From Lingula anatina (Eukaryota; Animalia; Brachiopoda): a DNA stretch of 64,000 bases. The notes beneath the pieces are model-generated. The model was not told the DNA's origin. It ran no database searches and saw nothing but the letters and a program-made list of their open reading frames with translations. Position 1 is the first letter of the stretch, and each line of letters opens with the position of its first letter. The translations under genes were made by a program, and so were the position numbers. The DNA lies in assembly GCA_051362555.1 (NCBI GenBank), contig CM120642.1, forward strand, positions 5,766,001 to 5,830,000, given 5' to 3'. Below are positions 3,189-64,000 of this stretch, piece by piece.

Positions 3189-3559
3189 CTGAAAAAAAGG
3201 GAACTTATCCATGTTAATGTGAAAAAAAAAATTGGTTCATATTTATTAAATAATGTTTTCTTATTTTCCGATATCCGTTCTTATCTTTAGATGAAGACAA
3301 TTTTTATTTTCTTATAATTTTCATTTATTTAGCATGGTTTTATTTTATCTCACAATATTGCACCTATTAATCTGCCCTGGTTTTCTTAGGGACAACTTTG
3401 GATGTATGAAGAGTGAGCTTACGTTCGTCAAAGTCGCAATGAGCGGTAAAGTTTGACCTTGGCAACATCATTAGTTTGGCTACTAGACCTATTTCTCTGG
3501 AGAGTGTGAGTGGAAATTCCTGATAACAGATTTTAAGGTATCTTTCAATCATTATCAAC

Positions 3560-24800: not shown

Positions 24801-27800
24801 TTGTTTGTTTGAAGAAGTTTTTGTTTGCTTAGTCAGTGAAAATGGGTGAACCCCCCCCCCCTTCTCTACTTCTCTCCTGTTTGCGGATCATCACTGTATA
24901 ATACAAATATTTACGTCCATACATAGTATTAGATAACACACAGGTAAACTAGGTCGCCGGGTCGTTATCAGCCTCACCCGAGTTACAGTGTACATAAACC
25001 AGTACTTGATCAGTGATTTGGTCCAGTCGAACTCTGTGTTCCCAAATATTCAGCATCACACCATTTCTGAGACAGATACATGTGCCAGTATTACAGGTAA
25101 GCCAATTGAAAAGTTTTACTCAGATTTTATAAATATCTTCGTCTTAATGAAGAAGGAACAGTTCCTTGGTCGTTTATTACAGTGAACAAATTCATCAGCT
25201 GCATTATTCACGTACTATAAGCTACAAATATGGTTTAAAAAAGCTAAATTTCAGGCAACATATTAAGACAATGAAGTGTTGTATTCAGTTAGTAATAATT
25301 CTTAAGATTTAGCTGCAAGTTGTTTGTAGAAACTATAATTGAAACTTCACTTATTTAAACCTAAAGCTCCAGGCGTCCATATCCAAGGTAAACATCAGTC
25401 CGGTCATTTATTGGGACAGGTTAAAATCTAGTAGAGTAGGCAACATAATATAGTACGTTGATACAGGTTACATAATGGAAAACAACTGTCTTCAATCTTT
25501 ATAGTAAAGTCGATTGATTGGATGTCAGAGATTAATTTCATCAGCTGTCTTTTGTTATAAGAATAAATAAAGTAGTTTTTCTTCGATCAACAGCTAAAAT
25601 ATTGAAATTGTTTACCTCTAATATTTCGATGACTGTTAAAGCATTTTTATCAGATGGATTGACTGTATCCATTTGCCCGTGGAAGAGCCGCTTGTGTACA
25701 GAGAATTACTAGTTTTTTATCGTTCGAGGAAAAACAATAAGGACTTGGATATTAAGGTTTAACAGGAAAAACTATATAACTGTGAACTAGGCTGATACTA
25801 CCAGGCGCTCAGATAAGAGTGCATCGAGACCTTATAATTCTTACTAAATTAATAATGGTAACGTTAATAAATATTGGTGTTAATTTAAGAAGTCAGCTGG
25901 TAGCAACAATGAGGTATTCATCGGTCTGGGTTACACTGGTCATTACACGATTTAACTTTATTTATCTATATATTAAAATTAATCCTTGTATATAAATAAA
26001 AATTTCCCTTTCATGGTGTTGAGTGAAATGTATCGCTCATATTTATCTTGAGGTAGTTTGAACCTAGCATACGCGTGTATGAGAAGTTCAGAATGATAGG
26101 AAGCATTTTAGACCTTAGAGTTTTGAACAAAACATATGAATTAATGGATTTCAAAATATATTTTCAGGAAAACTTTTGCGTGATCTGTCTCCAGAATGGC
26201 ATCTCAATCCGAAACGCTTCGGCCACTTGGCGGAACAGAAAACGCCATGTGTGTCTTGCACGAATACGGCAACACGACCAACGTGTTCAGCGTGTGGATC
26301 AACACGAAGACGCATGTGCCAGATGGCACGTGGGAGCGCTCTCTGATCCTGCTTCAGAAGAACTTCCCAACGCTTCGACTACGAGTGGTGGAACAAGGAG
26401 GCAAAAGGCACTTTAAGTTCATGGACGATCCTCACGTAGACTATGAAGTGAAAGATTTGAGCGACCCTGGTGACTGGATGGATTTTCATGAGAACTTGCT
26501 GCAGTTGAGGTTTGATATTAAGAACGGACCTTTGTGGAAGGTGATGCTTTTGCGCTTTCCGCAATCCTCAGGCAAGAACGAGGGTGGTGATGAGAACGAG
26601 TTTGGATTTGCAAATGTCTTGATGTTCGTTTTCCATCATTGCATCATAGATGGGAAGTCGAACATCATCATGCTCACGCGCCTTGTCCATATTCTGAACG
26701 CCATTATAGCAGGGGAGGCAGTAGAGGAAAACGATGTGACTACTGTTAAACCGACGGCAGAGCACCTTATTGGAGATGAAAATATGAAGTTTCGCATGAA
26801 GGATTTTATCCGAGTTGGAAAAGAAATTTACAACTTCTTGTTCCCCCATGAGAATTTATTCTTGAAAAAGTTCCCAGCACCGCAACTGGATGAAGGTGAT
26901 ACCGGCCGCACGAGGGTCGTTCCCTTGGAGTTGTCAGTGTCTGAGACAGGGAACCTGTTGGCTAAGTGTAAAGAACACGGTTCAACGGTCAACGGCATCT
27001 TCGTCGCCGCCGCCAGTATTGCATTGTCCCGCATGATCAACGAAGGTGGCACGCCACGCCCGTTGGACTTTCTCTGCGGGCACGCCGTTACATTACGCCG
27101 GTATATATCAGATGACATGAGCAACACGGTGGGATGTTTCATAGGCCTTCACCGCATTGGCTTTGTCACTCCTGCTGACACAAGTGACCAGCTGTGGCCA
27201 TTGGCCGTACAAGCCACCAAGCGCATCCACGATGATTTGGACCATGACAGCTTTCTCCAACAGCATCGAGTGGCCTTAAGTTTAGTTTCCGATAAGAACA
27301 TTAGGAAGTTGATATCGACCAAGATGTGCGAAAGCGAGTTCGAATCATCTAACATCGGGAACTACGACCTGGTGTTCCCGGCGGAAGATAAGCACGTAAA
27401 GGTCACCAAGGTCGTCAGTTCTACAGCCATGCAAGACTTGCACACGCCCTTCATTCATTACTTGCGGAAGTTCCGTGGGCGGTTCCTCTATAACTTGGAC
27501 TATTCAACGAACTGGACATCTGACCAGAATGCGAACAAGTACGCTAACATGACCGTCCAGTTAATGAAGGAAGCATCGAGAAGAAGCATGTGCACTTCTG
27601 CCGGAATGACCGCAGATGTCACTGTGCGGGCATCGAGCAGAATTCTTTGTCCGCCCCTTCCCAATTTGCGCGGTTTCATAACTATTGGCAGGATTTTGCG
27701 TTATGCGCGCTGAGGGAATGTATAAACCGTCCTCAAAGACTGACAGACTCGCTTTTTGCTGGAAACTAAAGTCATCTATTGGTATTCCTCTGCCTGGGCA

Positions 27801-31406: not shown

Positions 31407-34400
31407 TAAAAAAAAATGAATGATTTTAGGTGGAGTAACAAATGACCTGGGCGACAAATGCCTGCCTTGTAAAACGGGTTACATGAACAACGTGCTGACA
31501 CAGAAGTACTGCATGCGCCAGGACTGCACGACAGATCCCGTTACAGAGTGCAAGGGTTCCGCATGCAAAGAGGGACGTTCTTCCATGGGGTTAGAATTCA
31601 GGATGCCATTTCCTGAAGGGTCTGGGAATGATATGATACTGAAGCTTGTGTTTAGTGCCGTGGCATTGACGAATGTGACTGTCACAGCTCCAGGGTAGGT
31701 AATCATCAGTTTATTTGTGAAAAAAAATTTAAATGACATATAAAATGACATTATTTTTCAAAGTTTCCCCATTTCCCCTGGTTTCAAATTTGGATGTATT
31801 TGGAAAAGAAAAATGATACTTTGTAATTTTCATGGCCAGTGTTTACTTGTTCTTTTGTGGCACTGTCAGGTTGTATTTGATGATGCAAGTATTTTACTTG
31901 AAATATTTGTAGAAGTAAACATTTACATTAATATAGTGATATACATCTTTTTGTAAACAATTGTAATACCTTCATCTTGAGCCAATGTCAAATTGTTATA
32001 ATTATAGTTGCTGTGATATGTCAATGACAGTACAGGCATCATCAAGTGCCATGGCCAATGTAATGCTGGCATCACTTGGCTTACAGGTGATTGGAAGCAA
32101 CAAGGCCAACAATGCCATCTCCATTGTTGCTACTGAGAAAATATCTGTGCATGGTGAGAATTATATAATTATCATAATATACTGTTTCTAAATTAACCTT
32201 GAGGTGCATTGACACATTCATTTTTCAACTCTTCTGTAAAATAGTTAAGACAGAGCCAGAGGGATAGATTAATTAATATTGCTATTAATTAAAATTTTTG
32301 ATAGATATTGTGTACCATGTGACCCTTCATTACCCAATAAGATTCAGTGTACATTATGAAGTATATAATAAGTATTAGAAAAAGAAAGAGTGGAAGAAAG
32401 AAGGTGGTAACAACTTGTATGTATTCCAGCACAACTCTCAGACAATAATAACAGCACTGGAGAGGATTGGTTTCAAGTGATGCCCATTTCTTCACTTGGG
32501 TATGAATATTTCGCCGTCTGCTGGACTCCTGAAAGTAGTTCTGGAGACTTGACTCAACTAGGTGATTATGGACAAAGTTGATTGACATGTTGATTGATTG
32601 ATTGATAGGTGGATGGATTGATTGACATTTGTTGTATATTTTAACGTCAGCTAGTGAATTACAATAGATTAAAAATAATAAGACTCTTTATTAAGTTTTT
32701 ATTGTTTTTAAATGGATTTAAATTCGGTTTTAGTGATTAAAAAAAATCTATATAATATGAAATCATACCATAAATGAGCTACAAAGTTTTTTTCTTACTT
32801 GATGTGTGTGTATCTTTAGGGCCTAAAAGTTTTGATTTTTTAGATGTAGCATCTGCAGTTGGTGAATACTGCACCAGCACAGACAGATACCTAATCTTTC
32901 TCACCAGAATCATTTTAAAGAATATTTTCGATTTCTATCCTACAGATGTGGTTGCGACTAGAAATGGAACATATGTTGTCGTCACCCTTGGTGCCGGAGT
33001 CACTTATGACGGACAAGAATATGCCAAGGGACAACAAATCCATCTGACCATGGCTGACAATGAGGTTCTACAACTACAGAGTGAGGGTGATTTGACAGGG
33101 ACACGAGTCGTTGCAGACAAACCCATAGCTGTATACAGTGGTAACATTCATTTGACAAGTATTGGATCTAGTAACTTTGAAAATATTACAGCAGAAAATA
33201 AGACAGCATGGACTTTGGTGGAACAGATGATACCAGTGGAAGCTTGGGGGACAGTTTTTGCTATGGTAAGATTTTTCACTCAGGTTTTTTTTCTTTTTTG
33301 TATTTAATACCTTTGTTATTATATATGGGTGGATTTTTTATAACATTTATGCAGGCACCTTTGTACCAAACTACTAACTACTAAACATGTAACAGGTAGC
33401 AAGACGGATCTATTTTAAAGAACTTTAACAAACTCCGAAAGAAAATATTCATTTGAACAGTGTACTTTTAGAACTATGCTCTTTGTTAAAGATAAATGGG
33501 TGCCTCATATTCATCAATGTTATTATACTGCAGTTCTTTTATCTTATAGCCTAAGATGAACAATGTCCAGGTTAAGGTCCTTGCAAGTCTTGACCACACA
33601 GAGTTAACCTTTGCCAATGGAACAATGACCAAAATTAAGAAACGTGGTCAGTCAGTGGTCATTCCTGCCTCAGTGGACAACAGTGGCTTTTACATCACAG
33701 CAAGCAAACCTGTCCTTGTAGTTGCCTATGTGGAAGCTGAGAATGTGTCTTCTCTTGGAATGATTGTTCTGCCACCTGTACAGCAGGGAGGAAGCAATTT
33801 CTTTTTGTAAGTTTTGCTTTTACTTATTTGTTATTTTTATTGCATTTATTTTTAGGATTGATTCTGAATTTTTTTGTGTATAATTCATAAGTCTGTTATT
33901 ATCTTAGCTAAAAAAAATAAAACATTTATGTAAATCTTGAAAGTTTATATTTCCGCTATTGCGTGAACTTAGTAATAATTTCCTTATTTGGTTTCTATTC
34001 TCAGCACAAGCGAATCACCAACCATGATAACCGTAGCAGTTGATGCCTGCCACTTGGACAATGTTCTTGTGAACAACTTTCCCCCAGTAGGTGGTGCTGT
34101 AGTACAGCCATACCCATCAGTCCAAATGACAGACATAACTACCCTCAGTTTTAAATTGCCTGCAGGAGTCCATTCTTTGTCACTTTCAAATGGTAAAGCC
34201 TTTGTGGTCATTGGCCAGTCTCTTGATAGTGCTGCCATCTTCAGTCTGGGAGCTTACTCAAATTTTATTAATAAGGTAATTATTGGTAGGATTGGTCATG
34301 TGTTAAATTAAGGAAAACATATTGTTATAATACATTTTTGTTTCTATATAAATAAGGCTTTTAATTTATTTGTAAATATTTGTATTAATATTTTGATTAA

Positions 34401-37526: not shown

Positions 37527-40500
37527 CTACGCATCGGCATATAATTTCTTGACGGAATAAGGAACTTTGGACCACTTTTTCCTTGATTGCTTCACCCCGC
37601 GTTCCTCAGTGTAAAATGCGCTAATCTTTAAACAAGGGTAGCCCTTCAATGTGTTTCCCCAGTCTTGTTCGCACACTTTGCAGTAAATCTTCTTAATACC
37701 GAGTGCTCTCTGTTGACTGTTATGATGATCTCGGAAAAGGACGAAATTAGAAGCGAAGTCGGGATCTGGATTGACGTAGGATGATCCAATTGTACAAATA
37801 TCAGAGAGGTTGCATACGCGCCTTCCGCACAGCCCTTTGCAGATGAGTGTTACGTCGTCGGTGCGGTTTGTCTTTTTTTGTTCTTCCATCATCTCCCGCT
37901 TTTGTTTTCTTCTGTGGGCATCTTCACGCTGGAAGTCTTCAACAATCTGCAACATCTGTTCTGAAGGTATTTGCTGTATGCTAGAAACGGCCATTTTTGT
38001 GAGCTGTTCTAATAAAACATTCACTTCATGCTTCGCTGTTGTGTTTGCCGCACCGATAACTGCAATGGTACTTTTCGTTGTGCGTGCACGTCCACGTGAT
38101 TGAATGCTGTATATGTCATCAAACATGTGATCGTAGATAACAACCATGCCGCAGTTGGACTCGTGAATTCCTTCCCCACCGACACTTGTACTAATCAATA
38201 CTTTTGTTTCTCCCGATTCAAATTTCTTCAGTATTGCCGTCTGTGTCTCAGGTGACATCCCGCCCTTCTCCGATGATTTTATTCCCATAAACACATCGGC
38301 ATTGAGCTGATGCAAATCTGTAGCATTGTTTATCCATCGTTTCATCGCCTCGGCTGCCTTTTTAGTCTTGACGAAAATCATTGCTGTAATTCAATTAAAA
38401 ATAGTTTCACCATGTTTAATATTTGATAGAAATTAAATACTGACGGAGTAGACTCCTTTCCTGTTTCATAGAGAACTGGAAACTCGTCTGTATTTTGTAC
38501 ATTGGTTTCCAGAGTTTTCAATTAGTAGAACTAAGATTGCCATCTTTTTTTAAACATTTTCCAAAATGTTACACTTTGTAACTTACCTCTAAATGGAAGG
38601 AAATTTTCTTCCTGTTTCCTTTGTTTGGTCAGTACCTGTTCTTTCAGAAGCTTTAGTTTTGGGGGTGTCCTTTCATTTGACGCAAAAGAGCTTAGTTGTG
38701 GTACATTGTCTGAAAAAAAGCATGTAAGTGATTATAAATTTCGTATGGGAGAGATTTCGGTCCTTCATTTACATTTTACAAATGTTTCTAATTAAACTTT
38801 CTCTGCAAAATTAAAACTTTTAATTTTTATTTCAATGCTCGTTCCAAATCCTATATCTTTGTTGTTCATGTACACATGCACTCACAACGGCAACATTTGA
38901 TACATATTTCTATTTGTCATATAAATTCTTTCAATCATAAACAAAACATGCAACCTAATATTCAGACTTAACTATTTTATGCTTTCAAGTAGTGCTTTAA
39001 CTATAGCTGTTAAGGAGCATCTGTTATCTCTGTTATTGTGTTTCTGTTTAAAAATATAACTATTTGGTAAACGAGTGTCCAATACCTTTAAAAAGCTTTA
39101 GTAGTCTTCTCTCCATGGCTCCAAAACCACTTTGCCTTTTCTTGCGTTCCATTTCATTATAGAAGTCCTCCAGAGATTTAAGCCCATCTTCCATTCGCAT
39201 TGAGCTGCAGAACTCCATTGCTGAAACATAAGATTTTCAGTGAAAGTGTTGACATTTAAATTTTTGTGCAAGCTACATTAAACTGTTATGACAAATGCTG
39301 CTATCGAAGTAAACACCCCATGAAAACGATAGCCACCGTTATTACGTCTAGTAAAATCTGAAACCTTTCAGGGTATTTGCCAAAATCAACGATGATTTGC
39401 ACCGAGTTTTAGCCAAGCTTAAATTTGCAAAACGGCTATCTGTGCTCACCTGTCTCATTTTCAGTTTAAACATTTCATTTTGTTAAAGAAAATACATTAA
39501 CTCCCATAATTGTGTCGACTCTAATTGTACTAAACGGAGTATGATCTCTTATTAAAGGCCACTTTTTCTCTTCTTTATAACCTTAATGTCTGTCAGTGTA
39601 ATAGATATACCGTGCTTTGGCATTGCCAAAGAGAAAAAGTTTTTGTCCCAAGGAAACTATAGCGTAACAAAGCGTACATATTAAACTTACAAATCAAGAC
39701 ATCAATATGTCAAGTGTCTCACACATTATTCTTACCACTGTTATATTCTAACAAATGTTCCAAACACAAGAGGCAATCCCCGGTGTTAGGACCGTCGTCT
39801 TCAAGAAAAGCCTTTTTCTTCTCCTCTACAAATGACATGTATTCCTGTGTGCCCTTGGTACTGCCCGTAGAAACTTGTATCCTGCTTTCTATCTCACCCA
39901 TCATGGACGCCAAAAGGTCATTGAATGGATTCTTTCGTTCCTCCACCTCAATGCAAACCTGGTCTATGGGCTCCAGTTTCATTTGGTTTAATTCTTCCAG
40001 GTTGTCCTTCACCGTAACAATGCGACGGGCGTCTAGATTGGCACAAAGCTTAAGAATGTGATGTGCAACACTTTCTGCGACTGGTCGTTTTCCCCCTCCA
40101 GGACTGGCGGTCAGCCCAACGATCTGTGGTAACTTTCCCTCCCCTGTTTTACCCAACTTCAACTTCTGTTCAACGTAAAATGACATGATTTGATTGTAAG
40201 GGTGGTCATTGTCTGCCTTGCAGTGATGGCACTCATCGAAGATGATTAGGGAGAAATCCATAATACTAACATCCTTCGACTCCAGTGAATTTTTCAAGAT
40301 GTTGTCAACGACTATAATGATGTCTTTGCGTCGGAGAAGTACACTCAGTGGCACATTCGAGTTTGACGCACCGCTGCGTTTGCCAGTGCTCCATAGCGGC
40401 ATGTATTTCTTGAAGTGTTTGAAGGTTTGTTTTAGGAGGGCAAACCGTCTGGTAACAAAGGCCACTTTTGGTAACTTTGAACTTTGTGTGTCCACGACGG

Positions 40501-41032
40501 CCTTCAGTTGAGTAACTTCGTCAACATTATTGCTGTCACGAACAGCAGGCGCAGTATGACAAGACGTTACGCTAGACGGGTTCACAGGTGTTTTCAATCG
40601 AGTGACGTCGTCGTCGTCGTCTAAAACTTTGGGCACAGTATTCCCCAATGAGGTCGCAGCCGTTTTCAATTCAGTTACATCATCATCTCCCCTGCCCGAA
40701 GTTGCCGCAGTCATCGTAGAAGCACATCTCTTCTCGAGGTGGTTTTTGGCAATCATTAAAGCCACGAGGGTTTTCCCGCTGTTTGGTGGAGCGTAGATAA
40801 TGCAGTTCAGCCCATCCATCGCCGGCTGAGCAAGTTCCTTCTGGTACGCCCTTGGTTTCAGGACTTCTGGCTGGATGCTATATTAAAGATATTATTATAT
40901 GCACGCGTATTTTATATTTTGTGATATATAAATTAAAATGAAAATAAAGACAGTGATAATTTTATGAAAAATTCCAACAATATTGAAACTTTTTATTGCT
41001 GATTATCATCTGCGAACATCTGCGGTAAATTA

Positions 41033-41063
<31 letters not shown>

Positions 41064-44000
41064 ATATTTTGCCAGGTAAATTACAAGGAACTCCTTCCAA
41101 GTAATTGTGCCATCATTTTTTGTTAATTAATCTTATTGGCAGCAAACCGCACGAAATAAGTACATGCATATAGGAGCTAGAAGTATATTTCATTGTAAAA
41201 ATAAAGGGAATTTCAAATACGTACAATTGTTAAAGCAAAATATGTACATGTATTACCTCAGAGTGTTTACAGAACCGAATTTGCTTTCTTTCCAACGCAT
41301 GTCTTCCAGCATCGAGGACAGATCTCTAGGTGGAGCCACCAATTTGCCTTTCCCGTTACCTAATTAATAAGAATGAGTTGAATTTTTTGTGTGGATGCCC
41401 GATATCTGTCACATCTTTTTTAAAATATTAAAATATGGTGATGTCAAAATAAAATGTATTTCTAATTATCTTCATATTTAGGTAAATGTTGTGATTCAAT
41501 TGCTGCTGCATTTGGCCACACATTTCACACCATTCACGAAGAAAATGAACATTTGGTTTGAACAGGACATTAAGATAAGTTATGTGTCCTTATTTAAGCA
41601 TACTATACCTGGGAAGAAATACATTTTCTTGCATAATGTATGAGTGACTTCCGACATCTGCTTCTGATTTTTGGGCGTCGATAATCGGGAAACGTGACTG
41701 TTAACCTAAAGATTGTACATGAATAAGTTGAGGAGCAGAAAACACACTATAAATCAACATTTAATATAAAACATACATGTCTCCATTCAGATAATTTCTG
41801 ACATTTACAAGAGTGAAAAGAGCCAAACTGGGGGACAGAAAATGTGCGTTCTGCCAAAATAAGCATGTTTCCAAGATGGGAACCTCTCATTGGTGTATTC
41901 TACTTATATCCGACAAATAAAATGGAACTTCATTCGAATTTATTTTCAAAAGGGACAACAAAATTATTATGTGAAGTACATATAAATCTGAGAGCTATGA
42001 TGACCTAAAAGATGTAAGTTTGATGAGATGTTTTCCAGTATGGAACCATCCATTTGAACGTTTACATATTTGGCGAGTTTAACATCAATATCATTCTCAT
42101 GCCACTCCTTCGTTTTTTATTGGTATCACAATTATGTCTTGATTCATTTATATCAATTAGATATTATTTTATGAACTTCAGTGATTCTTCGTGGAATAAG
42201 ATATGAAAAAAAAGAGAAGAAAGAGGAAAGCACCGCCAAAAAATCAGTATTTAAAACTTCATTGAGTAATTGTGTTCTGATAGGTCAAGCACTGTTGAAC
42301 TCGGAAAGATGTTCTCCCTCATATCTATAACAAGCATATGACGCTTAAAGGGATAATAACTCTTCATTTTGGCAAAAAAATGAATTTTCCTGGAGTAAAT
42401 AACAATTTTCCCATACTTACCAATGGTTAATGAATCCATTTTTACATTCAAAGTTAGTCCCTGGTTTTTTTTCTAAAAAGTTTGGTTTTTTTGTTAAAAT
42501 CTCTTAAGAGATTATAACAGAGTATAGCCATCAGTGGAGGTCACGTGATCTGAAGACAATCTCAGATATCAGAATAATAGCTATAACTGCTGTTTTTGTC
42601 GTAAAACAGAATATATTATATTTCTATGAGTTATTCACAATGTTTCTATTGTGAAATATAGATCTCATACGAAGAGTTATTGTCCCTTTAACTGACGCGA
42701 TATAAGTTGGCGCCTGGTGACTAAGTTTTGGCACCTTTGCAATGTTGTTGGCATACAGAGAAGCTAAGATGAATCAGCCGAAAACTGCAGCAAATGCACA
42801 CAATACTTTGAGGTCAAACAGGCTGATTACATTACTATCTTCAGGCAATATATATCGTATTTTTTTTCGTTTAGTTGGACTTAATGTCGCTAAAAAATTC
42901 TGACAAAATCATATGGACTTGCTTGGCGCCTAACCCTATACATTCACTGTATTTTTCATGGGTGCATGAGGGTGTACCACCCCCCCTCCCCCGCACTCTC
43001 CTATAAGTGACTGCATGGCTAATATTGTACATCACCTGTGTAAACATCGACACCACGTCCTCCTGACATGAAAGTTTACTGAAAACATCAACTATGGCTT
43101 GGATGAACCACGTGCCCTTCTTTGCCTCTCGATATGAAACGTATTCTGAAATAAAAAGAAATCTGAACAGGTTTTATGTTGGGATATACCAAAAACACTT
43201 TTTTGCGACTGTCACAGTTGCTACATGTACACGCATAATCCAAAACACCAAATAAAAAACGAACAACACTTACCACTTCCACATTTTTATACCTTTAACG
43301 TTTTTGCTTTGTTGGAATGATTGGATGGTAGTCTATAGCGTATTACTACAATTTAACAGCTGAAAAACAGTTTAGCTATTTTTACCTTCTGTTGTTGCCT
43401 TTGCAACTAGTCGGTCGCTGTTGGTCGGACGGATGTCGTTTCCATATGCTTCTGCGTCCACGCACACCGTATTTTCGGCGCCTACATTAGATTTAAATGT
43501 CAACAAATTCGTCATACTTTATGGTTTCCTAAATACATGTACGATATAGGACAAATTAATTTATTAAAATACATTTTAACACATTTGTTGAAACATACGG
43601 TTTTAACAGGTAAAGCAGCCTGAGTTTAAGGTCAATCAGGGTGTTCTTAAAGTGGGGGTGGGTGGGGGGTGGGGGGTAAATCCAAAGTGCGGGCAATTCT
43701 TGAGCATAAAAACAATAAGTTTTTTCCTGGGGTCAACTTTCAAAATTTGACAATTACTAATAATACCCAATCCCTGTTGCATTTGATGAAAAGGGTGCGA
43801 AATAATTTCTAAGTTCCTGACAAACTCATCGATTTTGCCTGACCTTATTAGGTTTATTTTCAACCACGAAATGAAACATGCCGTGCTCTCTATATGAAGA
43901 GCAGTATCGCTTGTCTGTGGCGCACAATGCGCGGTTGCGTTTCATATAACAAAAAGAAAATAATTATAATAAATTTGAACAATTTTACTCTCTACAATCC

Positions 44001-45121
44001 CTTTTTCGATTAAAAATAAGAATGACAATACCAGGCGAATCTGTTTCCTCTTCCTCCTCACTTTCCCCTTCATCAGTGCAGATAGCACCTTCGTCCCTCT
44101 TCTCTGGAAACATGAAAACCCCATCTTTACTCAGTAATTTATAACAGAATGTTTTGAAAGGCAAAAATTAAATTGATGACAGAAAGACAAATGAAAAAAA
44201 ACTGATATAAAAGGGAGGGACTTACTTCCTTGGCACGCCTGGATAAAGAACAACTTTGGCTTTCCTCTTAATCCGGGGCACGATTTGTTATTAAAGAAGC
44301 TGAAAATCTCCTGGTAATTCACAAATTTTAAATCCGTTCCGTATACAATCCCTTTATCTCCGTGACTGAGAATTACAAACACGAAGGAGTCAAGGGATTC
44401 GTGCACAGGATTTTGACTTTCTTCTCGTAAAGCATCTTTGATCTCCTGTAAGAAAATAATATAAATAATATAAAAACATTAAAAAACAATATAAGTTAGA
44501 AATGTGATTAACAATTTTCTCACGTAAATTATCTGTGTTCATAATTGACAATATTTAATATAATCAAACATAGTTTAGAAGGTTCAGCAGTTCAGTTATT
44601 GCAAGAAGACGCTTAATCCAATCATTATAAACAGATTTGCAAGACGTCACTTAACCGAATCAATATAAAATGATAACTAGAAGAAAAAGATTTCTTTCAC
44701 GTATCAAATCAAAGAAATAAAAAATCAATTGATATTGAATATCAAGTGATAAATCATTTGAAATAGCATATGGTTCAATGTCACTGAATTATCATAGATA
44801 ACAGCGATTCTTAAGTTCATGAAGTTTTTCATCCACTCGATACATTAACTTGGGATATTTTTTATCCACCCGACACATCATCCTGACTATGCTTACCTGT
44901 GCTTTTAAATCGTGTTTGACTACGACCTGATAGTGAAGTCCCGTAAATAATTTCTCCAACATGGCGACGTCGTGCTCTGTTCCACGTCGATCTCTTTTCC
45001 CGTCAAACTTTTTGTTGTTTATGACTAATACTCTGCCCCTTGGTGACGATATGTTCTTGTAATTCTGCAAAGACAATAGGGTTGGGATATATAACATTGC
45101 AGCCCACATAATACCCGTAAC

Positions 45122-45161
<40 letters not shown>

Positions 45162-46829
45162 GGAGAGAGAGAGGGGGGGAGAGAGAGAGAGGGGGGAGAG
45201 AGGGAGGGAGGGAGGTCTTCTCAGCATCTACTGTGACTTTTACTTTCATTTGTAACACAGATCATTAAAATAGAGAAAGTTAAAATAACCTTCAATTTTA
45301 TAGATTTTACCTTCTCAAAATCCGTACTGTGTTCTCTGTAAAACGATTCTGAGCAAGGGGGGATTTTCAACCCAATGTTTTCGTCTCCATCTGAATAACA
45401 TACAATTCTTTCAGTGCCATGTTAAACATAAGTCACTTGTGAATAAGCCACGTTGGAAGTCAATTATTAGTTTTTTTTTCAGCAAGTTTCATTTGTGCAA
45501 AATCACGGATCCAATATGTGAACTGATGAGATAATAGCATTCAACCTTACTGAAATAAAACAAGAACGTACCAATATCCTCGCTCCCAGAGCTCTCCCAT
45601 TCCCCCTCGTCCATATCTCGCCGACTTTCCTGAAACTCTTCAAAAAATATCAAAAGCTGTACAATTTCCATATATAGAGGCATTCATATGCATATCGCAC
45701 CATGGAACAGACGATAATTGCAGAAATTTAAACATCACAACTCAATTACTTATTTTGTCCTTTCGTGCTCAACAAGAATGTGATTTTAAAACATGGATTT
45801 TCAAGGCAGTAGGAACAGTAATCGGCAATAATTAACCTCGAGGATTGTGTATGAAGTTTATCTTAACTTACCATTTTCCAAATCCACAGCCAATTGCTTA
45901 AAAAATGTGTCACCCGCCTGTCGTAAAGCACGAACGAGATCTCGAAACCAGGACTTGCGTGACGGCAGGTTGTTCAGAATATCCAGTATCCGTCCAAGCG
46001 TTTCCTGCTGCGTTGAAGGACTTTCAGTACTATTGCCAACAAGGTTCGCTAGCACCGTGAACAAGCGTTCTCTTTGGACACCATTAAGTTTAGGGATTTT
46101 GTATTTGCGTATTTCTCTTAGTACGCGGTCCTCTGGTTCCTCTTTCACGATGATATCCGCTCTAGAATTATCTTTGAAATACAAAATACATCACAGGTGT
46201 AAATTAAAAAGCAACCATCAACCAAAGATAACTGATATATGTTGCTAAAAACAATTATAGAATAGCTTCCTTATAATAATAATAATAATTTATTCAGTTG
46301 ATACATATAACATATACGGCAAAGATTGGTTTCTGTCGGAGCTCTCAAAAGTGAAATATGAAACCATTTGAGTGAAAGATGTAAAAATAAAATGATTAAT
46401 AAGGAATATCTTTAAAAAGACTTTCCGAAGAGCTGCTTAGTATATCTTGTACGCCATCAGTTAATTCTTTGTAAAGTTCACTATTTGCTATTTTAGAATA
46501 ATTCCTTGGAGCATATGAAAAGGTAACGGTCTATAAAAAAATGTCCGTGATGTTGTCTTAGCTTTTAAATTTTAGGCCATTCTTTTGTCACCTGCTGTAT
46601 ATAACAAGAAATACATAGATTACATTACGTATACTATTACTCTATTTAGGTGAACTACATGTAGGCCTTCTGCATTTGTCTTGAACTAAAGTAGATCGAG
46701 TTTTTGGTCCAAAGATTTAAACCAATCTTCCGGTTAAAGTTTCTTTTGGTGATAAGAAGAGCTTTCAATAATGTTCTTACCTTCAGGGGAAAACGTTTGT
46801 GGCTCTTCCATTGCTTCCACTGAAGCCAT
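37527..46829 (-). CDS. CARD-like + caspase (p20/p10) + RIG-I-like DECH helicase + CTD fusion protein, copy 1 (~1205 aa, 15 coding exons)
   Basis: Exons 46829-46781,46171-45872,45637-45572,45390-45311,45064-44897,44445-44226,44103-44032,43481-43386,43145-43036,41705-41609,41359-41257,40877-39736,39220-39086,38709-38587,38383-37527; all GT-AG, phases match, 3618 nt. Motifs: PRGRVLVINN, RRGT, LSHG, QACQG, VSYR, GTWFIQ, KKMYFFP; RAYQKELAQPAM, PPNSGKT, DECHH, GLTASP, IFVKT, QSRGRAR, CKGLC..CKVC..DWG..PCLKI..KKW. Confidence 0.9.
42349..42687. mobile_element. Kolobok/T2-like MITE, copy C
   Basis: TTAA|AGGGATAATAACTCTTC ... GAAGAGTTATTGTCCCT|TTAA; very similar to copy B. Confidence 0.85.
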
Positions 46830-47320
46830 GACTTTGTGTAACAGATATCGACTGAAAACAAATAAACTGGATGAAATACAGGAAGCAGTTTATTTTCATC
46901 AGCATACTGGTATCACATACAGGAGTATCAGGAGTATAGCAGTTATCATTTTTTCCACTCCTATCTCGGTCTTTCTACTATTTTTGTTTAATCTTGTATT
47001 TGGTTTATGTTATCCATCTAATATCATTATGTTAACATTTCCTTTTGAATTGCGCAAGAGGACGTGGTTGTCGAAAGGGAAACATTTAAAACCAAATCAA
47101 TTAATCAAAATAGTGTAAAACATCGAAAGCAAGTGCGGGGACGGGTCGTGCAATGATTCCTGTGTAGGAAAAAAATCGACTTGGTAGGAAGATCTAGAAT
47201 AAGACACATAGCTTCAAGGTTTAGGATACGGTTAACCCCCTGTCAATAGAAGGCCTCAATCAATAGGAGAGCAGCCTATTTTAGGACTACGAAAACTCCC
47301 GTTATCTTCTGATAATCAAT

Positions 47321-51957: not shown

Positions 51958-54900
51958 CTAAGCATCGGGATAAAATTTCTGAATGGAAAAAGGAACACTG
52001 GACCACTTCTTCCTCGATTTCTTTACACCTTGTTCCTCAGTGTAAAAAGCGCTAATTTTTAAACAAGGGTAACCATACGACTGCAACGTGTTACCCCAGT
52101 CTTGTTCACATTCTTTGCAGTGGATCTTCTTAATACCGAGTGCGCTCTTTTTAGGTTCATGATGATCTCGGAAAAGAACATGATTGGAAGCGAAGTCAGG
52201 ATCTGGATTGATGTGGGCGGTTTCGATCTTGCGGATATCAGAGAGCTTGCATACTCGCTTACCACATGGTCCTTTGCAGATAAGATTTATGTCATCAGTG
52301 CGGATTTTCTTTTTCTGTTCCTCCATCATCTCCCACCTTTGTTTTCTTCTGTGGGCATCTTCATGCTGCATGTTGTTGATCTTCTGCAACATATGTTCTG
52401 GAGGTATTTGCTGTATTCTAGCAACGGCCATTTTTGTGAGCTGTTCTAATAAAACATTCACTTCATGCTTCGCTGTTGTGTTTGCCGCACCGATAACTGC
52501 GATGGTACTTTTCGTTGCGCGTGCACGTCCACGTGCCTGAATACTGTATACGTCATCAAACATGTGATCGTAGATAACAACCGTGCCGCAATTGGACTCA
52601 TGAAGTCCTTCCCCTCCAACACTTGTACTAATCAATACTTTTGTTTCTCCCGATTTAAATTTCTTTAGAACGGCATCCTGCTCGCCATATGACATCCCGC
52701 CTTTCTCGTTTGAAGTATTGGTTCCAAAAAGAACGTCAGCATTGACCTCTTTCAAATCTGTGTCACTGTTTATCCAAACTTTCATGGCCTCTGCTGTCTT
52801 TTTTGTCTTGACGAATATTATAGCTGTAAATTATTTGAAATTAATTTTGATTTGTATTGCACTATTTAAGATGTCAAAGAATATAATGGGTAGACTGAGT
52901 AGAGACGTCTCGAGTTTCAGTATCCGTCTTCCCCGGTGCCATCTGAAACTCGGGGTGAATTCACGTTAAATTTCAATCCAACTGATTTAGTTTTCAACGT
53001 GCAGGTCTGAACTCGCCACTATTTTTTTTACATTTAGCATAAGTTGTGGTATACTGTATATTGTAGCCTACCTCTATTTCCTTCGCATTTCATCTGACTA
53101 GTAAGAATCTGTTCTTTCAGAATCTTCAGTTTCGGGGGTGTTTTTTCTTTTGACGCAAAAGATCTCAATTGTTGCACATTATCTGTAAAAAAAAATGAAG
53201 TTTTAAATTCGATTTGGCATGAGAAAGAAACTGATCTGCCATCATTTTCAACTGTGTATAGTGGGGCTTTCTCTGCAAAAAAGAGCAGCTTTTTACTTTA
53301 GTGTTGCCCGCAAGAAAATGCAGTAGTATCGAAGTAGCAAAGAAGCATTAACGCAGTAGTGGTGTGGAGCATATTTGCAGTAGAAATGCAGTATAGCCTA
53401 CTGCAATTCTACTTCAAAAATTACATAGGGTTGTACAGAGGAGGAGCATTAATGCAGTAGATTAGCAGCATGATAGAAGCATGTTTCAAATATGCTAATT
53501 AGCTCCCACATCGAAGCAGATTTGAAGCATGTTTGCAGTATGATTGCAGTAGTCTACTGCGCTGGAGTATCTACTTCGTTTTCGTGCGGGTGGTTTTGAA
53601 TATGTTTACACTGCAGTGCTGCAGCTTTAATGTGTAAGTAATGCTGATCAATCATAAATATCTTTTATTCATAAACCAAACAAAATGCTTTAAAGTAACA
53701 AAACTGGTAGTACTACTGGTACATGCATATGTCCCACTGTTGAGAGAATTCTGTTGTTTTTTAATTGTGCATCTTCTTAGATATATATAACAATATGAGT
53801 GTTGCATACCTTCAAAATACGTCAGTAGTCTTTTTTCCATTTCTACAAAACCACTCTCCCTTTTATTGCGTTCCATATCATTATAGAAGACCTTCAGACA
53901 CCAAAGTGCATCTTCCATTCGCATCGAGCTACAAAACTCTATCGCTGAAACATAAGGCTATCTGTAAATGTTCTGACATTAAATTTTTTTATGCAAGCCT
54001 CATAAAATTGTTATGACAAAACAATGGTCCCCAAACAAGTTAGCACCTTTGTAAATAGAGACAAATGACACCAATATGAAGTCTTTCAAGGTACCTGCTG
54101 TCACTTAAGATGGTTTAGATTGAGTTTAAGCTATGTAAAGTCTGCTCAAACTCTATTTCAAATTTGAAAAGCAGCCGCCTAAGATTAATTCTCATTTTGA
54201 GTTCGAGCATTTTTGCTTTTGTTGGAGTAATTCCAACAACATTTGCAACATTAAATACTACTTAACGGAGTAAGATGTATTTTAAAGGCCATCTTTCTTT
54301 CATTTCTCTATAACCAGACTACCTTTTAGACGCACTACAAAGATGTACCGGGTAATGACATTGTAAAAGACACACGTGGATATCGAGCATATTTTAACTG
54401 GACTAATACAAATCAAGATACCAATGACAAGTATTTCACGTATTATTCTTACCATTGTTATATTCATACAAATGATCCAAACACAGGAGGCTTTCCAGGG
54501 TGTTAGGACCGTCGTCTTCAAGGAAGGCCTTTTTCTTTTCCTCTACAAATGACATGTATCTCTGTGTACCTTTAGTAATGTCCGAAGAAATTTGGATCCA
54601 ACTTTCTATCTGAGTCATCATGGCTGCCAAATGGTCATTGAATGGATTCTCTCGTTCCTGCACCTCAACACAAACCTGTTCTAAGGGTTCCAGTTTCCTT
54701 TGGCTTAATTCGTCCAGGTTGTCCTTCACCGTGACAATGCGGCGGGCGTCTAGATTAGCACAAAGCTTAAGAATGTGCTTTTCAACACTTTCAGCGACTG
54801 GTCGTCTTCCCCCTCCAGGGCTGGCGGTCAGCCCAACGATCTGTGGTAACTTTCCCTCCCCAGTTTCACCTAGCATCAACTTCTGTTCGATGTAAAATGA

Positions 54901-57900
54901 CATGATTTGATTGTAAGGGTGGTCATTGTCTGCCTTGCAGTGATGGCACTCATCAAAGATGATTAGGGAGAAATCCATAATACTAACATCCTTCGACTCC
55001 AGTGAATCTTTCAAAATGTTGTCAACGACTATAATGACGTCTTTGCGCTGGACAAGTAGACTCAATGGCGTATTCGAGTTTGACCCACCGCTGCGTTTGC
55101 CAGTGCTCCATAGTGGCATGTATTTTTTGAAGTGTTTGAAGGTTTGTTGCAGAAGGGTAAACCGTCTGGTAACAAAGGCCACTTTGGGTACCTTGGAACT
55201 ATGTGTGTTCATGACTGCTTTAAGTTCAGTAGCGTCCTCAATATGACTGCTGCAAAGAACAGCAGGTACAGTCTGGTAAGATGGTCTGCTAGAGTTGACA
55301 AGTGTTTTCAGTCGAGTATATATAACCTCGTCCGAAGCTTTGGGCACAGTATTCTGCAATGAGGTCGCCGCAGTTTTCAATTCAGTTAAGTCATCATCTC
55401 TGCCTGAAGTTGCCGCAGTCATTGTAGAAGCACATCTCTTCTCGAGGTGGTTTTTGGCAATCATTAAAGCCACGACGGTTTTTCCGCTGTTTGGCGGAGC
55501 ATAGATAATGCAGTTCAGCCCATCCATCGCCGGCTTAGCAAGTTCTTTCTGGTACTTTCTTGGTGTCAGTACTTCTGGCTTGATGCTATATTAAAGACGA
55601 ATGTTTTAATTCATTAACTTCACGCATGAGTAATTTCATTTGGAGATATGATATGATATGATTATACATAACATGTAAATAAGCCAGTGATATATATCGT
55701 ATATGCTTGTGTGTATGTGTGAATTTTTCTAAGCAGGCAAATTACCAAAGACTTTTATTATGTAAATTAAGTTTGTTACCAAATCCGTGACATAGATTCA
55801 CGATTATGCCTTAGGGGTGATGTAAGGGTAATTTATCATCCAGATTTCAAAAATGTTTTTTCCTGCATCTAATAATTCAATATGCATCTACCTCTGTGCT
55901 GACTTAAAACAAAAAAAACCCAAAATATGAAATAACTGCGTTTATATTTCTCGTTGCTGTTATTAGCAAAGGCAACTCTAAGCTTTTATCGTCAATTTAA
56001 CTTTTTATTTTTAGGTTAGATTGCAATCGGTATGGGTGTCATACAATTGGTGCTTGATTGGTGTTCGTGGGTGCGCAGGTAAAGGAGAAATTAGAGAAAT
56101 CGATTTTTCAATTTTTACCCCTAAATTACAATTATGACGTCACCTGTCAAATTGATTTAGTCACTAAACACTGAAGATTTATCTGTTACCCAAAAGAATG
56201 TTTTTGGCAAACGCTCACCGTATCCTAATTTTGTTCATAACTCTGACAATGTACACCATTCAATAAGGTCATGTAAGAAATACAAATGTATATAATTGTC
56301 AAAACAAGAGGCATATGTGTGATGTATCATTGTAAAAGCAAATGCATATGTAGTACCTGATTGGTGATTCAAGTGATGGTTCAGAATCCAGTTTAATTTT
56401 TTTCCAAGGAACTTCCTCGAGCATCGAAGACATATCTGTATGAGGCTGCTCAGATTTGCTTTTCCCATTGCCTAATGAATAAGAATTGGCTAAATTATCT
56501 GTGGAGATAACCCATATACTCGTGTGAAGGGTGTTTAAATATGTCTTTGTCCTAATGGCCTTCCAACAATAAGCAAAACGTTTCACAGCATTCATATAAA
56601 GAAGCACCCATGAACATTTGGTTTTAAAGAAAAGGTTTTACGAAGTTGCATAAATGGCTATTATATACATGGATATGAGCGCCATACCTGGGAAGAAGTA
56701 CATTTTCTTGCATAATGTATGTGTGACTTCCGACATCTGCTTCTTTTTTTTTGACGTCGATAATCGGGAAACGTGACTGTTAACCTAAAGATTGTACATA
56801 CACATAATCAGTATGTACATTACACATATGCAATAGGTATAAAATGAAAACTAGAATGCAAAGCTGGCAAATACACGTAACGGGTACTGTACTTAGAAAT
56901 TTAGCAGAGAAAACACATACTTCAACAATATTTACAACAAGAACTTCTGCAAAAGTGCAATCATGCCAAATTTAAGAAGAAATCTGCCTTTTAATCAAAC
57001 AAAGACCCCCAAAAAATTAAAATGGAATTCAATATACAGTTTGCCAGTTATAGGGTGAACAACCTTTGTGTCGTTCGGCGACGATGTCACGAACAGACCC
57101 AGTGCTAAGAATGAATATGGACACAACCAGTGGCTTAATATAAAAATTTTCACTCTATCTGCTGCCTTCCTAAAATTGGTTTTCACACCAACAAAAACCA
57201 TACGTTAAAGCAATTCAATTTAACAACTACTTCGTATATGCCTTGATACTACACTAAAATCAAATATTGGGGAGGGGGGGTCAAACAAGTATCCAGTTTA
57301 TGAAGAAAGCGCAGACCTCCGCCAAGGCAGCAAAGTCTCATTCTATAATGGTTTAGTTTTTTATTTTTGATTATTGATTGATTATTGATCCGGATCACCA
57401 CCACAAACTAATCATCTGTTCCTTGGCCCACTTCTGACATTTCATCAAAATCGGTCCATAACTTATTTTTTTGATTTTTGCTTTTTGATTATCGATTGAT
57501 TAGTGATCCAGATCACCACCAAAAACTAATCACTTCTAAGTTAACCCATTTCTGACCTACCCTGAAAATTCCATCGACATTCATCCATCACTTTTTGAGT
57601 TATGTTGATGACAAATAAACAGGGGTGAAAACATAACCCCCATGGCGGAGGTAATTATTGGGAAAAAAGAACTGATGTCAAGCATGTTAAATTCTGGGGA
57701 CAACAGAAAAATGACCAAGGGTCAAAAGGTAGCTTTATTACTATGCGTTGCTGCGTAAATTTGTTCGATGTGATTGGTGGAAAATTGTTTTACACGACAA
57801 TATCTATTTGACGCATTATCAGGCATAGACCAAGTGCCGAGTGACCTACATGTAGTTTTGTCAGGAGATAGCTAAAGGCTGAAGCAAACAGAAGACAGAA

Positions 57901-60900
57901 ATGTTAACATTAATAAGCAGGATGTATAAACTATCTTCAGGGTTTATATAATTCCTGTAGTTGGACTTCATTATATATTCAACAAAATTTCTAACAAAAT
58001 AATTAGGCCTGACAACACAAGTTTTTCATGGGCCTCTTATGCTGTTACATTCCGTATCTCCCCTAATAACTGACTGCAACTTATGTTGTACATCACCTTT
58101 GTTAACATCGATCCCACGTCCTCCTTACATGCATGTTGACTGAAAACTTTAACTATGGCTTGGATGAACCACGTGCCCTTCTGTCTCGTTCGATATGAAA
58201 CATATTCTGAAAACATATATATAGAAAATTAATCAGCGTTGAAAAATACCAGAACAAATTTATATGCGTCCGTCACATAGTTGCATTGCTAAAATCTAAT
58301 ATGTCTAATCAGCCCCCCCCCCCCCTGGGATTTGAGGTGCAAAAAAAATCGCAAAGGTGAAAAAAAATTGCAAAGTTGGTATCAATTCTGTGAGAAAATG
58401 CACTCATGGCCACTAGACAATCATTCAACAATCTGTTTACAAAGTTGTACTGTTTTTAGCCAACTCAGTTCATGCTAAAAAGCTCACCCTCCCATAGGGA
58501 GCTATCCCCCAGGCTGTTATCAGGTTATTGTTTACCCTGACTGTTTGCCCAACAAAGCTGGGAGGGCTGTTTTGAGCCTGCAGAGAACAGGTTGTATGGC
58601 CGTATCAGTATGTGGGATCAGTTTACATGGTGTTTAGCCTGGTCATGATGTAAACTGCCCCACAGCCTGTGCACAATAGCAAGAAACGTTATTCCTGATC
58701 CTTAGACAATCTGCGAAATGAAGTCCAATTGGCGTGCTGTGTTGAAAAAATGACTTTACTTATGGCAAAATGAACCCACAATTTCTGACTTCTGATTGAG
58801 CAATAAATAACAATTTTAACTTTGAACTTTTAAAAAATGCACCAGAATGCAGTATTATACATACAGTTTTTCAAAATTTTCCACACCGTCAGAGGGAGAC
58901 ACCCCCTCCCCCTCGGGGGCTCAGGCTACGGCCCTGCTAATACGAACAAAAGTCGCCATTTCCGCATTTTATACCTTAAATGTGTTTGCTTTGTTGCACA
59001 TTCTACGTGTTGTATTGTTGGGATGATTAAAAGAAACGGTATTACCATAGCCTGATAATAAAATCAAAACAAGAAAACCATTTTTTACCCTCTGTCGTCG
59101 CTTTGGCAATGAGTATATCACTTTTAGTTGGAAGGATGACTTTTCCATGTGTTTCAGCATCCACGTACAACATATCTCCGACGCCTGCAGTAGCTTTACA
59201 TGTAAACAAATTTATAACGCTATGATTTTTAATATGATATAGGACATACAATATGTATATACAGTATTAGCAAATTTCCACACCGAAAAGAGTTAAAATA
59301 TAGTGTAAACTAAGATAAAATTAGGCTAGGTTGGTTGAGGAGAGGCGACTAAAAGGGTAGGTAGACGGAATTTATTATTTGCAGCTAGATTTTTGGGGTC
59401 TGTCGGGGTTTCTAAGGAGGTGTCACAGTGTGGGCAATTTTGAGCATAGAAACAGCAGAAAGGTTTGTCCAATAGTCAATTTTTTACAGTTGCCAAAACA
59501 ATGCCCCTTAGAAAAAGTCAAAGCTTTGTGGACAGGTAATTCTTTGCTAAAATCCTATGATAATTGCATTTCAAGTTTATTCTTCTTTTCGTGGCAGTAT
59601 CCAAAAGGGAAAATCATTTAACAAGTTGCAAGTACATGTAGAATGTATATATAGCTTACAATATTATAATGGTATCTTATAGCAACAGAGAAAACACAAC
59701 AGCAATCGTTCGAGCCATATTTCACACATGCTTATATTCTCCAGAGAATGAAAAGATTATAGACTTGGCCTGCGTAAATAAGAAAGATATGTTACCGGGC
59801 GAATCCGTGATCTCTTCACTTTCCCCTTCATCGGTGCAGATAGCACCGTCGTCCGTCTTGTCTGGAAACATTAAAACCCCGCTTTTACTCAGTTATTGAT
59901 TACAGAATATTTTTGAGTTTAATTGTCAATCACATGCATTTAGGATGTAAGTGTCACAAAGAAAGCATTCTTGTATCTGCTACTCGAGTTTGAAACCTAG
60001 GAACAATCTAAATTTCTCACAATAATGAAACAAGTGCACAATTTAGTTGTTCCTTTCTTATAATAATCTGACTGAAATTGACCCCTTTCTACTATTGCAG
60101 GATTTTCCTCATTTTAAACAGTATAAATAGTGTGAAATGAAATAGTATAAATTGCCATGGAAAGAAAAGTTTATCTTGAAGACGCCAAGAAATAAACAAA
60201 AAAATGGAAGAGGAACTTACTTCCTTGGCATGCCTGAATGAAGAATAATTTTGGTTTCCCTCCTAATCCGGGGCACGATTGGTTATCAAAAGGGCTTAGA
60301 ATCTCCTGATATTTTACAGATTCAGAATCTGTTCCGCGTACAATCTCTTTTTCTCCGTGGCTGAGAATTACACACACGAACGAGTCAAAGGATTTGTGTT
60401 CAGGATTTAGACTTTCTTCTTTTAAGGCTTCTTTGATATCCTGTTTAAAGAAAAAAAGGCTTGTACACTGTGGTTATCTTGGAAAAGTTTTTTACATATG
60501 TATATTTTCTTTTACGTGTTTTTTAATATTCTTAATCGATAAATATTAAATATCAATTGCAACTTAATTAAAATGTGAAGCGTTTGGTTGCAAGTCACTG
60601 AACATTTTCGTCCTAAACCTTCACCCGGAAGAGAATATTTTTACAAATTTAACCAAAAACAAAAATCCAAGATCATATTGAACATAAAATGATAAATCAT
60701 ATAAAATAATACATAGTTTAGTCTCATCCAATTACTATGGATGACTTTGAAGCTATAAAAATCTGAAGTTCGAAACATTTTTGACCACGCGATACATAAA
60801 CATTTATATCTTGAGAATTATTATCAAGCATGATAATCAGAATGGTTTGTTTTTGAGAAAAGCAAAATCAAAGTTTGTTACATTTTTATCTTCTCGATGC

Positions 60901-63585: not shown

Positions 63586-64000
63586 GATTTTGTGTAACAG
63601 ATATCGACTGAAATCAAATAAACTGCATGAAATACAGGAAGCAGTTTATTTTCATCAGCATGCTGGTATCACATACAGGAGTATTGCACTTATCAATTTT
63701 CTAATCCCATCCCGGTCTTTCTACTATTTTTGTTTAATCCTATATGTGGTTTATGTTATCCATCTAATATCATTTTGTTGACATTTCCCTTTGAAATGTG
63801 CAAGGGGCGTGGCTGTCAAAATGGAAACATTTAAAACCAAATAAGATTTTATCTCTAAAATCGGCAGAATTGACCAGTGTAGGCCTACGGGCTACAATAC
63901 CGTGCCGACATTTTGGTTAAATGTTTTTGTTTTGGAGTTATGAGCCCGTAAATACAGATTTTCATTAAACAAAAGCATTATTTATCTTTATTAACCATTA

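Follow-up and report, generated by a model that had tools for sequence, protein, structure and literature searches.

Two tandem caspase-helicase genes

A 64,000-nucleotide stretch of the genome of the brachiopod Lingula anatina (assembly GCA_051362555.1, contig CM120642.1, positions 5,766,001 to 5,830,000; here termed the window, in whose coordinates all positions are given) contains two tandem minus-strand genes, each of which encodes a caspase fused to a helicase of the RIG-I-like receptor (RLR) type. Self-matches and exon models built from the window yielded 15 exons per gene: copy 1 (46829-37527) codes for 1205 amino acids and copy 2 (63585-51958) for 1203. In either copy all 14 introns are of the GT-AG type, with identical phases, and the open reading frames are intact, with no internal stops. 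Both proteins are composed of a weak CARD, a caspase, a RIG-I/MDA5-type helicase and a C-terminal domain (CTD), in that order. Copy 1 corresponds to the RefSeq protein XP_013415812.1 (LanRLR6; 1192 of 1205 residues identical) and copy 2 to XP_013415810/XP_013415811.1, the latter being LanRLR4. The X2 isoform models of RefSeq (P0001, P0232) are without the CARD and exon 4. A further entry, LanRLR5 (P0122), shares 98% identity with copy 1. It begins within the last caspase exon on a short contig and may represent a truncated allele, and not the caspase-free sibling as which Yao 2022 treated it.

In copy 1, exon 1 (46781-46829) carries the start codon, in agreement with XP_013415812.1. Exon 2 (45872-46171) encodes a degenerate CARD, closer to the CARDs of RLRs than to those of caspases (Pfam CARD_2, E 0.0036, below the cut-off), and exon 3 (45572-45637) an acidic linker with a candidate CARD-release site, EDID↓G (D139), at its end. 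The segment at 41609-45390 is exactly exons 4-10. Exon 4 (45311-45390) contains the pre-p20 segment (IPPCSESFY), recognized by alignment; exon 5 (44897-45064), the first half of p20 with the S1 residue Arg191 (Peptidase_C14, E 1e-10); exon 6 (44226-44445), the catalytic His249 together with Gln290 and Cys292 of QACQG (E 2e-19); exon 7 (44032-44103), the linker between the subunits, in which the exon and structure models place ICTD↓E (D305) and EETD↓S (D316); exon 8 (43386-43481), VCVD↓A (D327), the start of p10 and, in the alignment, the unusual Arg342 and Lys346; exon 9 (43036-43145), the S1 residue Arg356 (VSYREAKKGTWF; E 2e-5); and exon 10 (41609-41705), the end of p10 (FFPG), with the splice donor within the last Gly codon. 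In both copies a short linker exon (in copy 1 exon 11, 41257-41359, phase 1 to 2) bridges the phase-1 end of the last caspase exon and the phase-2 start of the helicase exon, keeping caspase and helicase in frame. Pfam and alignments assign Hel1 (PPNSGKT, DECH, TAS), with an insert of about 90 amino acids and V644 at the position of RIG-I T347, to exon 12 (39736-40877); Hel2i to exons 13-14 (38587-39220, i.e., 39220-39086 and 38709-38587); and Hel2, the pincer, the RIG-I CTD and the stop codon to exon 15 (37527-38383; Helicase_C E 5e-13, RIG-I_C-RD E 8e-15). Copy 2 (51958-63585) is a tandem paralog with the same exons and phases, its caspase exons lying at 62131-56688 and its linker exon, which contains IKLD↓S, at 56471-56357.

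When single exons and full proteins were compared with Pfam, weak CARD_2, Peptidase_C14, DEAD/ResIII, RIG-I_C, Helicase_C and RIG-I_C-RD matches were obtained. Taken singly, three caspase exons per copy match Peptidase_C14 (E 2e-5 to 2e-19); copy-1 exon 10, the fourth exon tested, alone gave no match to this profile. The whole caspase domain covers the profile from end to end (1-233 of 233, E 3e-57).

The caspase-helicase fusion is real and expressed. Five reads from two of four RNA runs are spliced exactly from caspase exon 10 to linker exon 11. Among the joints listed, those of copy 2 between exons 2 and 3 (15 reads) and exons 3 and 4 (13 reads) occur in three of the four runs; these exons are near-identical between the copies, such that the reads may derive from either, and 32 further joints lie beyond those listed. 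In runs X1, X4 and X2 exon depth was scant or zero. The junction between linker and helicase is supported by the sequence, by RefSeq and by the read-checked models of Yao.

Completeness and affinities of the caspase domain

The initial annotation described the caspase as catalytically complete and caspase-2-like, and all the motifs that it had named (catalytic His and Cys, S1 arginines, D↓S and D↓A linker sites) are present in both copies. Copy 1 contains RRGT (R191, 44987-44989), LSHG (H249, 44362-44364), QACQG (C292, 44233-44235), EETD↓S (D316), VCVD↓A (D327) and VSYREAKK (R356); the corresponding motifs of copy 2 are RFGT, LSHG, QACQG, EITD↓S (D314), LYVD↓A (D325) and VSYRTRQK (R354). Our comparison set comprised 62 caspase domains, from 65 proteins hand-picked out of about 250, with six dropped as partial. 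Positions R191, G193, H249, G250, C292, G294, D341, R356 and G361 are each identical in all 62 comparators and in both copies, and Q290, shared by 61 of the 62, is likewise retained. The His-Cys dyad (SHG, QACxG) and the Arg-Gln-Arg pocket for S1 (R191, Q290 and R356, the last being R354 in copy 2) are complete. Other positions are less typical. Lys346 occurs in both copies and also in the Lingula Roc-COR caspase XP_013407220; Glu351 replaces a Gly found in 49 of 62 comparators and is shared with a snail CARD caspase; and the residue that follows the S1 Arg is Glu in copy 1 and Thr in copy 2, compared with Asn, Asp or Ser in 54 of 62. The motifs TTEEYV and KQMSEVTHTL reappear in a free-standing snail CARD caspase.

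An AlphaFold2 model of the 1063-residue isoform, built on a caspase-only alignment that leaves its helicase part low in confidence and uninformative, gave predicted local distance difference test (pLDDT) values of about 90-98 for the caspase core and below 50 for the loop that bears D316 and D327. With this model Foldseek returned caspase-8, -9, -3 and -7 and CED-3 at target template-modelling scores of 0.83-0.92. The ratio of nonsynonymous to synonymous divergence (dN/dS) between the copies is 0.36 in the caspase core (confidence interval 0.23-0.59), and all catalytic and S1 residues survive in both after a synonymous divergence (dS) of about 0.34. The residues shared with 61-62 of the 62 comparators, the full Pfam span and the confidently predicted fold argue for a catalytically complete caspase, as had been proposed, and the domain is likely to be active as a protease.

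The subfamily was assessed with a 64-row and a 36-row tree, both without inflammatory caspases and without a typical mollusc caspase-2; approximately unbiased (AU) tests were run on the 36-row set. The best stand-alone matches of the domain are caspase-2 and mollusc CARD caspases, which accounts for the caspase-2-like impression. In the larger tree both domains fall within the CARD-caspase (2/9/Y) group (support 93/88), in keeping with the group foreseen by the initial annotation, and therein within a starred nine-row spiralian clade (96/89) which includes the Owenia ROC caspase and Lingula XP_013405490, the latter named Casp.Y3 by Horkan 2024 (PMC11463336). The same clade appears in the 36-row tree (94/84, not starred), where chordate caspase-2 is its weakly placed sister (82/87). 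Closest among the rows is the Lingula Bcl-2-like/Roc-COR/caspase protein XP_013407220 (P0298), with 128 of 265 residues identical (48%); a sister branch with it has only 60/16. An exclusive clade with the four chordate caspase-2 rows was rejected (AU p 0.028), as was one with chordate caspase-2 plus Gigantopelta Casp.2b (p 0.007). Membership in caspase-9 was likewise dismissed (AU p 0.013 against an exclusive clade; QACGG in caspase-9, QACQG here), and so was membership in caspase-8/10, which QACQG might suggest (AU p 0.0075 against a clade with DED caspases; no DED prodomain match).

On these sequence comparisons, the caspase belongs with the spiralian caspase-Y. The term caspase-2-like holds for the broad CARD-caspase group and fails for caspase-2 itself: it is fair as a resemblance, because caspase-Y is placed beside caspase-2 by Krasovec (PMC10959488), and wrong as a membership. 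Similarly, the noted likeness of the pre-p20 segment to caspase-2 is real, with a still closer match in XP_013407220. According to Horkan 2024 (PMC11463336), Lingula has lost caspase-2 and Apaf-1 and has six caspase-Y paralogs, the Owenia ROC caspase falls inside caspase-Y, members of this subfamily may also carry prodomains other than CARD, and a role in immunity is suggested in the discussion. Both XP_013407220 and the Owenia protein CAH1786849 (P0351) combine Bcl-2-like, Roc-COR and caspase-Y modules (Bcl-2 E 0.003 and 5e-23, respectively); the former is missing from the accessible supplement of Horkan and the latter is entered there without a prodomain.

Outside the folded core, three sites of the D↓G/S/A type are common to both copies: D139↓G, D316↓S and D327↓A. 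Three candidates come in addition to those of the initial annotation: EDID↓G at D139, ICTD↓E at D305 and, in copy 2, IKLD↓S at D446. D305 lies at catalytic Cys+13, and snake caspase-2 has its first linker Asp at the same spacing. The inter-subunit linker contains 15 acidic residues among its 41, and the mere presence of D↓S and D↓A sites is therefore weak evidence; their conservation was dismissed as proof of cleavage, an identity of 61% between the two linkers being sufficient to account for it. Self-cleavage at D316↓S and D327↓A, candidate sites within the loop modelled as disordered, is nevertheless plausible. The S2 pair and the L4 loop help to shape the substrate pocket of caspases. Here the pair before the S1 Arg is V/Y, as in caspase-8, and the L4 loop is short, so that a preference of the (I/L/V)ExD type (IETD/LETD) would be a better first guess than VDVAD. 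The proposed shift in specificity between the paralogs, from Glu versus Thr after the S1 Arg, is plausible from the sequences.

Origin of the fusion and features of the helicase

The N-terminal domain was compared with profiles of 13 RLR CARD regions and 13 caspase CARDs. It scored 18.5 bits on the former and 5.7 on the latter, and hhalign gave 16.5% and 3.9%, respectively, both weak signals; a MAVS-like CARD_2 cluster in the ESM Atlas (0.79) is no more than a lead. Each of the four closest RLRs has one CARD_2 and a long linker. The end of exon 2, the starts of exons 3 and 4 and the end of exon 10 are all in phase 1, and the donor of exon 10 interrupts the final codon (Gly) of FFPG, the point at which related caspases terminate. 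Because these phases and this donor fit such an event, we infer that a phase-1 to phase-1 caspase-Y cassette (exons 3/4-10) was inserted into a phase-1 intron of an older RLR, behind its single CARD and ahead of its helicase. The fusion of a whole CARD-caspase gene ahead of a helicase was considered and set aside, since the CARD scores better as RLR-type, albeit on weak evidence. Two of 21 long matches contained both domains, both of them from Lingula, and among the top 150 representatives the fusion occurred once, in the query itself; unsampled brachiopods and phoronids lie outside this search.

The 5' parts of the copies are unusually similar. For exons 1-5 dS is 0.13, compared with 0.38 for exons 6-10 and a further value of 0.30, and the segments 44852-47097 and 61611-63842 align at 84% with introns included, most other introns being unalignable. 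The low dS together with the alignable introns suggests recent gene conversion between these parts.

The best match of the helicase among solved structures is MDA5 (E 3e-85), and the full architecture of Hel1 with its DExD/H motif, Hel2i, Hel2, pincer and RIG-I CTD is present. The GKT, DECH, TAS and VI motifs are intact, and the cysteines of the CTD are retained. Between the copies dN/dS is 0.40 (0.31-0.53) in the helicase and 0.22 in the CTD, indicative of purifying selection. An insert of about 90 residues between Walker A and motif Ia (40450-40720, minus strand, and also in copy 2) contains three imperfect DDVTELKT-type repeats and has no counterpart in the alignment with MDA5. Six other RLR entries are known from Lingula.

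Elsewhere in the window, an element of 347 bp with 21-nucleotide terminal inverted repeats, non-coding and resembling a miniature inverted-repeat transposable element, lies in intron 9 of copy 1 (42345-42691); two more copies are at 10884-11227 and 22921-23265, and the family is abundant in the RNA reads. Downstream of copy 1 and in the opposite orientation is an exon of an IgGFc-binding-domain gene (32774-33304 and nearby, plus strand; E 7e-24). An intronless frame of 509 codons (26184-27713, plus strand; GC about 47% against a background of 35%) matches Condensation, PapA_C and AATase, and thus codes for an acyltransferase of the CoA-dependent fold. A DDE_1 transposase frame occupies 2111-3280 of the minus strand, and the frames after it encode a coil rich in Lys and Glu and a Cys-rich end.

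Proposed mechanism, alternatives and related systems

We regard it as an even bet that the fusion is an active initiator caspase of the caspase-Y type carried on an RLR chain, switched on by clustering of the helicase on double-stranded RNA (dsRNA) and leading to a death-type output. In such a scheme the helicases would cluster on dsRNA and thereby force the caspases into dimers, which would cut their own linker, with D316↓S and D327↓A as the likeliest sites; the CARD might be dropped at D139↓G, and in copy 1 the p10 would remain on the helicase. The output would probably be the cleavage of executioner caspases or other Asp-containing substrates, with no need for MAVS, FADD or Apaf-1. The in-frame structure, the residues, the modelled caspase fold, expression and splicing, purifying selection and the intact helicase motifs count in favour of the scheme, as do the lack of Apaf-1 in Lingula reported by Horkan 2024 (PMC11463336) and the precedent of the engineered fusion DRACO (PMC3144912). 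A more elaborate version is correspondingly more tentative: an RLR would have captured a caspase-Y cassette of the Roc-COR caspase lineage to form a natural one-protein antiviral death switch, in which viral dsRNA scaffolds the caspase without an adaptor and the helicase is retuned (T347 contact lost, P-loop altered) against firing on self-RNA.

Caspases disfavour a Glu directly after the Asp. A Glu follows D305, the site with caspase-2 spacing, and this is one of several observations that weigh against the scheme. At 61% identity between the linkers, the retention of the two Asp sites is not beyond chance. The tether between p10 and helicase has no D↓G/S/A site in copy 1; copy 2 has IKLD↓S, and the claim that p10 would stay on the helicase after linker cleavage consequently follows from chain order in copy 1 and is doubtful in copy 2. 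Arg342, confined to copy 1, occupies a position that is hydrophobic in all 62 comparators. Read depth is low, the reads diverge by a few percent from the window, and the linker-to-helicase joint is not among the joints listed from the raw RNA reads. In the helicase, compared with 118 near-complete RLRs (of 140 matches) at 71 columns conserved to at least 85%, both copies depart at 8 of the 71 (63 kept), the RLR median being 3. The departures include T485P and G486N in Walker A, Q605T, T644V and, in motif V, D994H. No RLR of the 118 has Val in the T644 column; V644 aligns without gaps with T347 of RIG-I, and the RNA contact is lost in both copies. The T347A mutant of RIG-I is reported to bind RNA poorly and not to signal (PMC4733034). 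RNA gating would thus be the weakest link of the favoured mechanism, because the T347 equivalent, Walker A and the motif V Asp are changed in both helicases, and these changes may undercut a simple model of clustering on RNA. They also count against the view of the initial annotation that the active protease would be kept on RNA.

The same changes, together with the insert in Hel1 and the six other Lingula RLR entries, fit an alternative in which the caspase is active and the helicase is no longer an RNA sensor by itself: the protein would ride on filaments of other Lingula RLRs, bind another ligand, or act as bait for viral antagonists of RLRs that trigger the protease. The purifying selection on helicase and CTD, the intact GKT, DECH, TAS and VI motifs, and the fact that 9 of the 118 RLRs depart at 8 or more columns speak against it, and we consider this alternative rather unlikely. 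Somewhat less probable is an enzyme that is RNA-gated and active, yet serves as a local regulator and not as a trigger of death, trimming its own CARD or nearby signalling proteins and so tuning or ending the antiviral response. The two copies have the same EDID↓G ahead of the caspase and behind the CARD, the CARD is retained, a tethered p10 would keep the enzyme in place, and the immune role suggested for caspase-Y by Horkan 2024 (PMC11463336) would be in accord; the identity of exon 3, however, may stem from the recent gene conversion (dS 0.13 versus 0.38).

The unusual residues of the caspase (Arg342 of copy 1, Glu351 in place of the common Gly, Glu or Thr after the S1 Arg) could be read as signs that the domain, in copy 1 if not in both, is a weak or dead scaffold resembling cFLIP, which would act by forming heterodimers with other caspases. 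The survival of every catalytic and S1 residue in both copies at the observed dS, and the recurrence of TTEEYV and KQMSEVTHTL in the free-standing snail caspase, render this improbable. Least credible of all is an artefact of the gene models, whereby a caspase gene ending after FFPG would lie beside a separate helicase gene. Read-through of the exon-10 donor would indeed meet a stop after 8 codons in copy 1 or 15 in copy 2, and the junction reads number only five; yet spliced reads do join exon 10 to exon 11, the phase-correcting linker exon is retained in both copies, and RefSeq and Yao's models concur.

If the protein is an RNA-gated protease, then sensor, adaptor and initiator caspase would be collapsed into a single chain in an animal without Apaf-1 and caspase-2, and the fusion would offer a first direct handle on the substrates and immune role of caspase-Y. 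So far it has appeared in print as a domain drawing only. Yao 2022 (PMC8998645) presented the two genes as LanRLR6 and LanRLR4, with the CASc domain in one species only, credited Gerdol 2018 for caspase-bearing RLRs, noted that LanRLR6 is expressed in digestive tissue, and hypothesised apoptosis, inflammation or pyroptosis; the accessible portion of that paper does not treat catalytic residues, subfamily, cleavage sites, the residual CARD or the changes in helicase motifs. The text of Horkan 2024 (PMC11463336) contains neither RIG nor helicase as a word, and four RLR-caspase accessions looked for in its supplement are missing there. Literature searches, which do not cover subscription papers, found no functional study of the fusion. 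The architecture is already published; what is added here is the assignment to caspase-Y, a likely donor lineage, the proposed entry of the caspase after the RLR's own CARD, and the helicase changes.

Among known systems, caspase-Y of molluscs, annelids and brachiopods (PMC10959488, PMC11463336) shares QACQG, GTWFIQA and the tree grouping with Casp.Y3 and the Owenia ROC caspase; it ends after FFPG, where an RLR helicase follows here. Lingula XP_013407220 has the highest caspase-domain identity, a similar pre-p20 segment and VAKATT in common, and differs in that its caspase is C-terminal. Vertebrate caspase-2 resembles the fused domain in the pre-p20 segment, QMSE..TL, the FFPG end and the top BLAST-type matches, whereas it has QACRG, GSWYI, an A/M S2 pair and a long L4 loop in place of QACQG, GTWFI, V/Y and a short loop. 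MDA5 and RIG-I share the order Hel1-Hel2i-Hel2-pincer-CTD; they possess tandem CARDs, as opposed to one weak CARD plus a caspase, a lost T347 equivalent and a Walker A of PPNSGKT. The engineered protein DRACO reportedly uses a CARD or DED to recruit procaspases of the host, unlike the Lingula RLRs, in which the catalytic domain itself is fused. As proposed for them, DRACO unites dsRNA detection and an apoptosis domain in one chain, in its case an artificial dsRNA-binding fusion that kills infected cells (PMC3144912).

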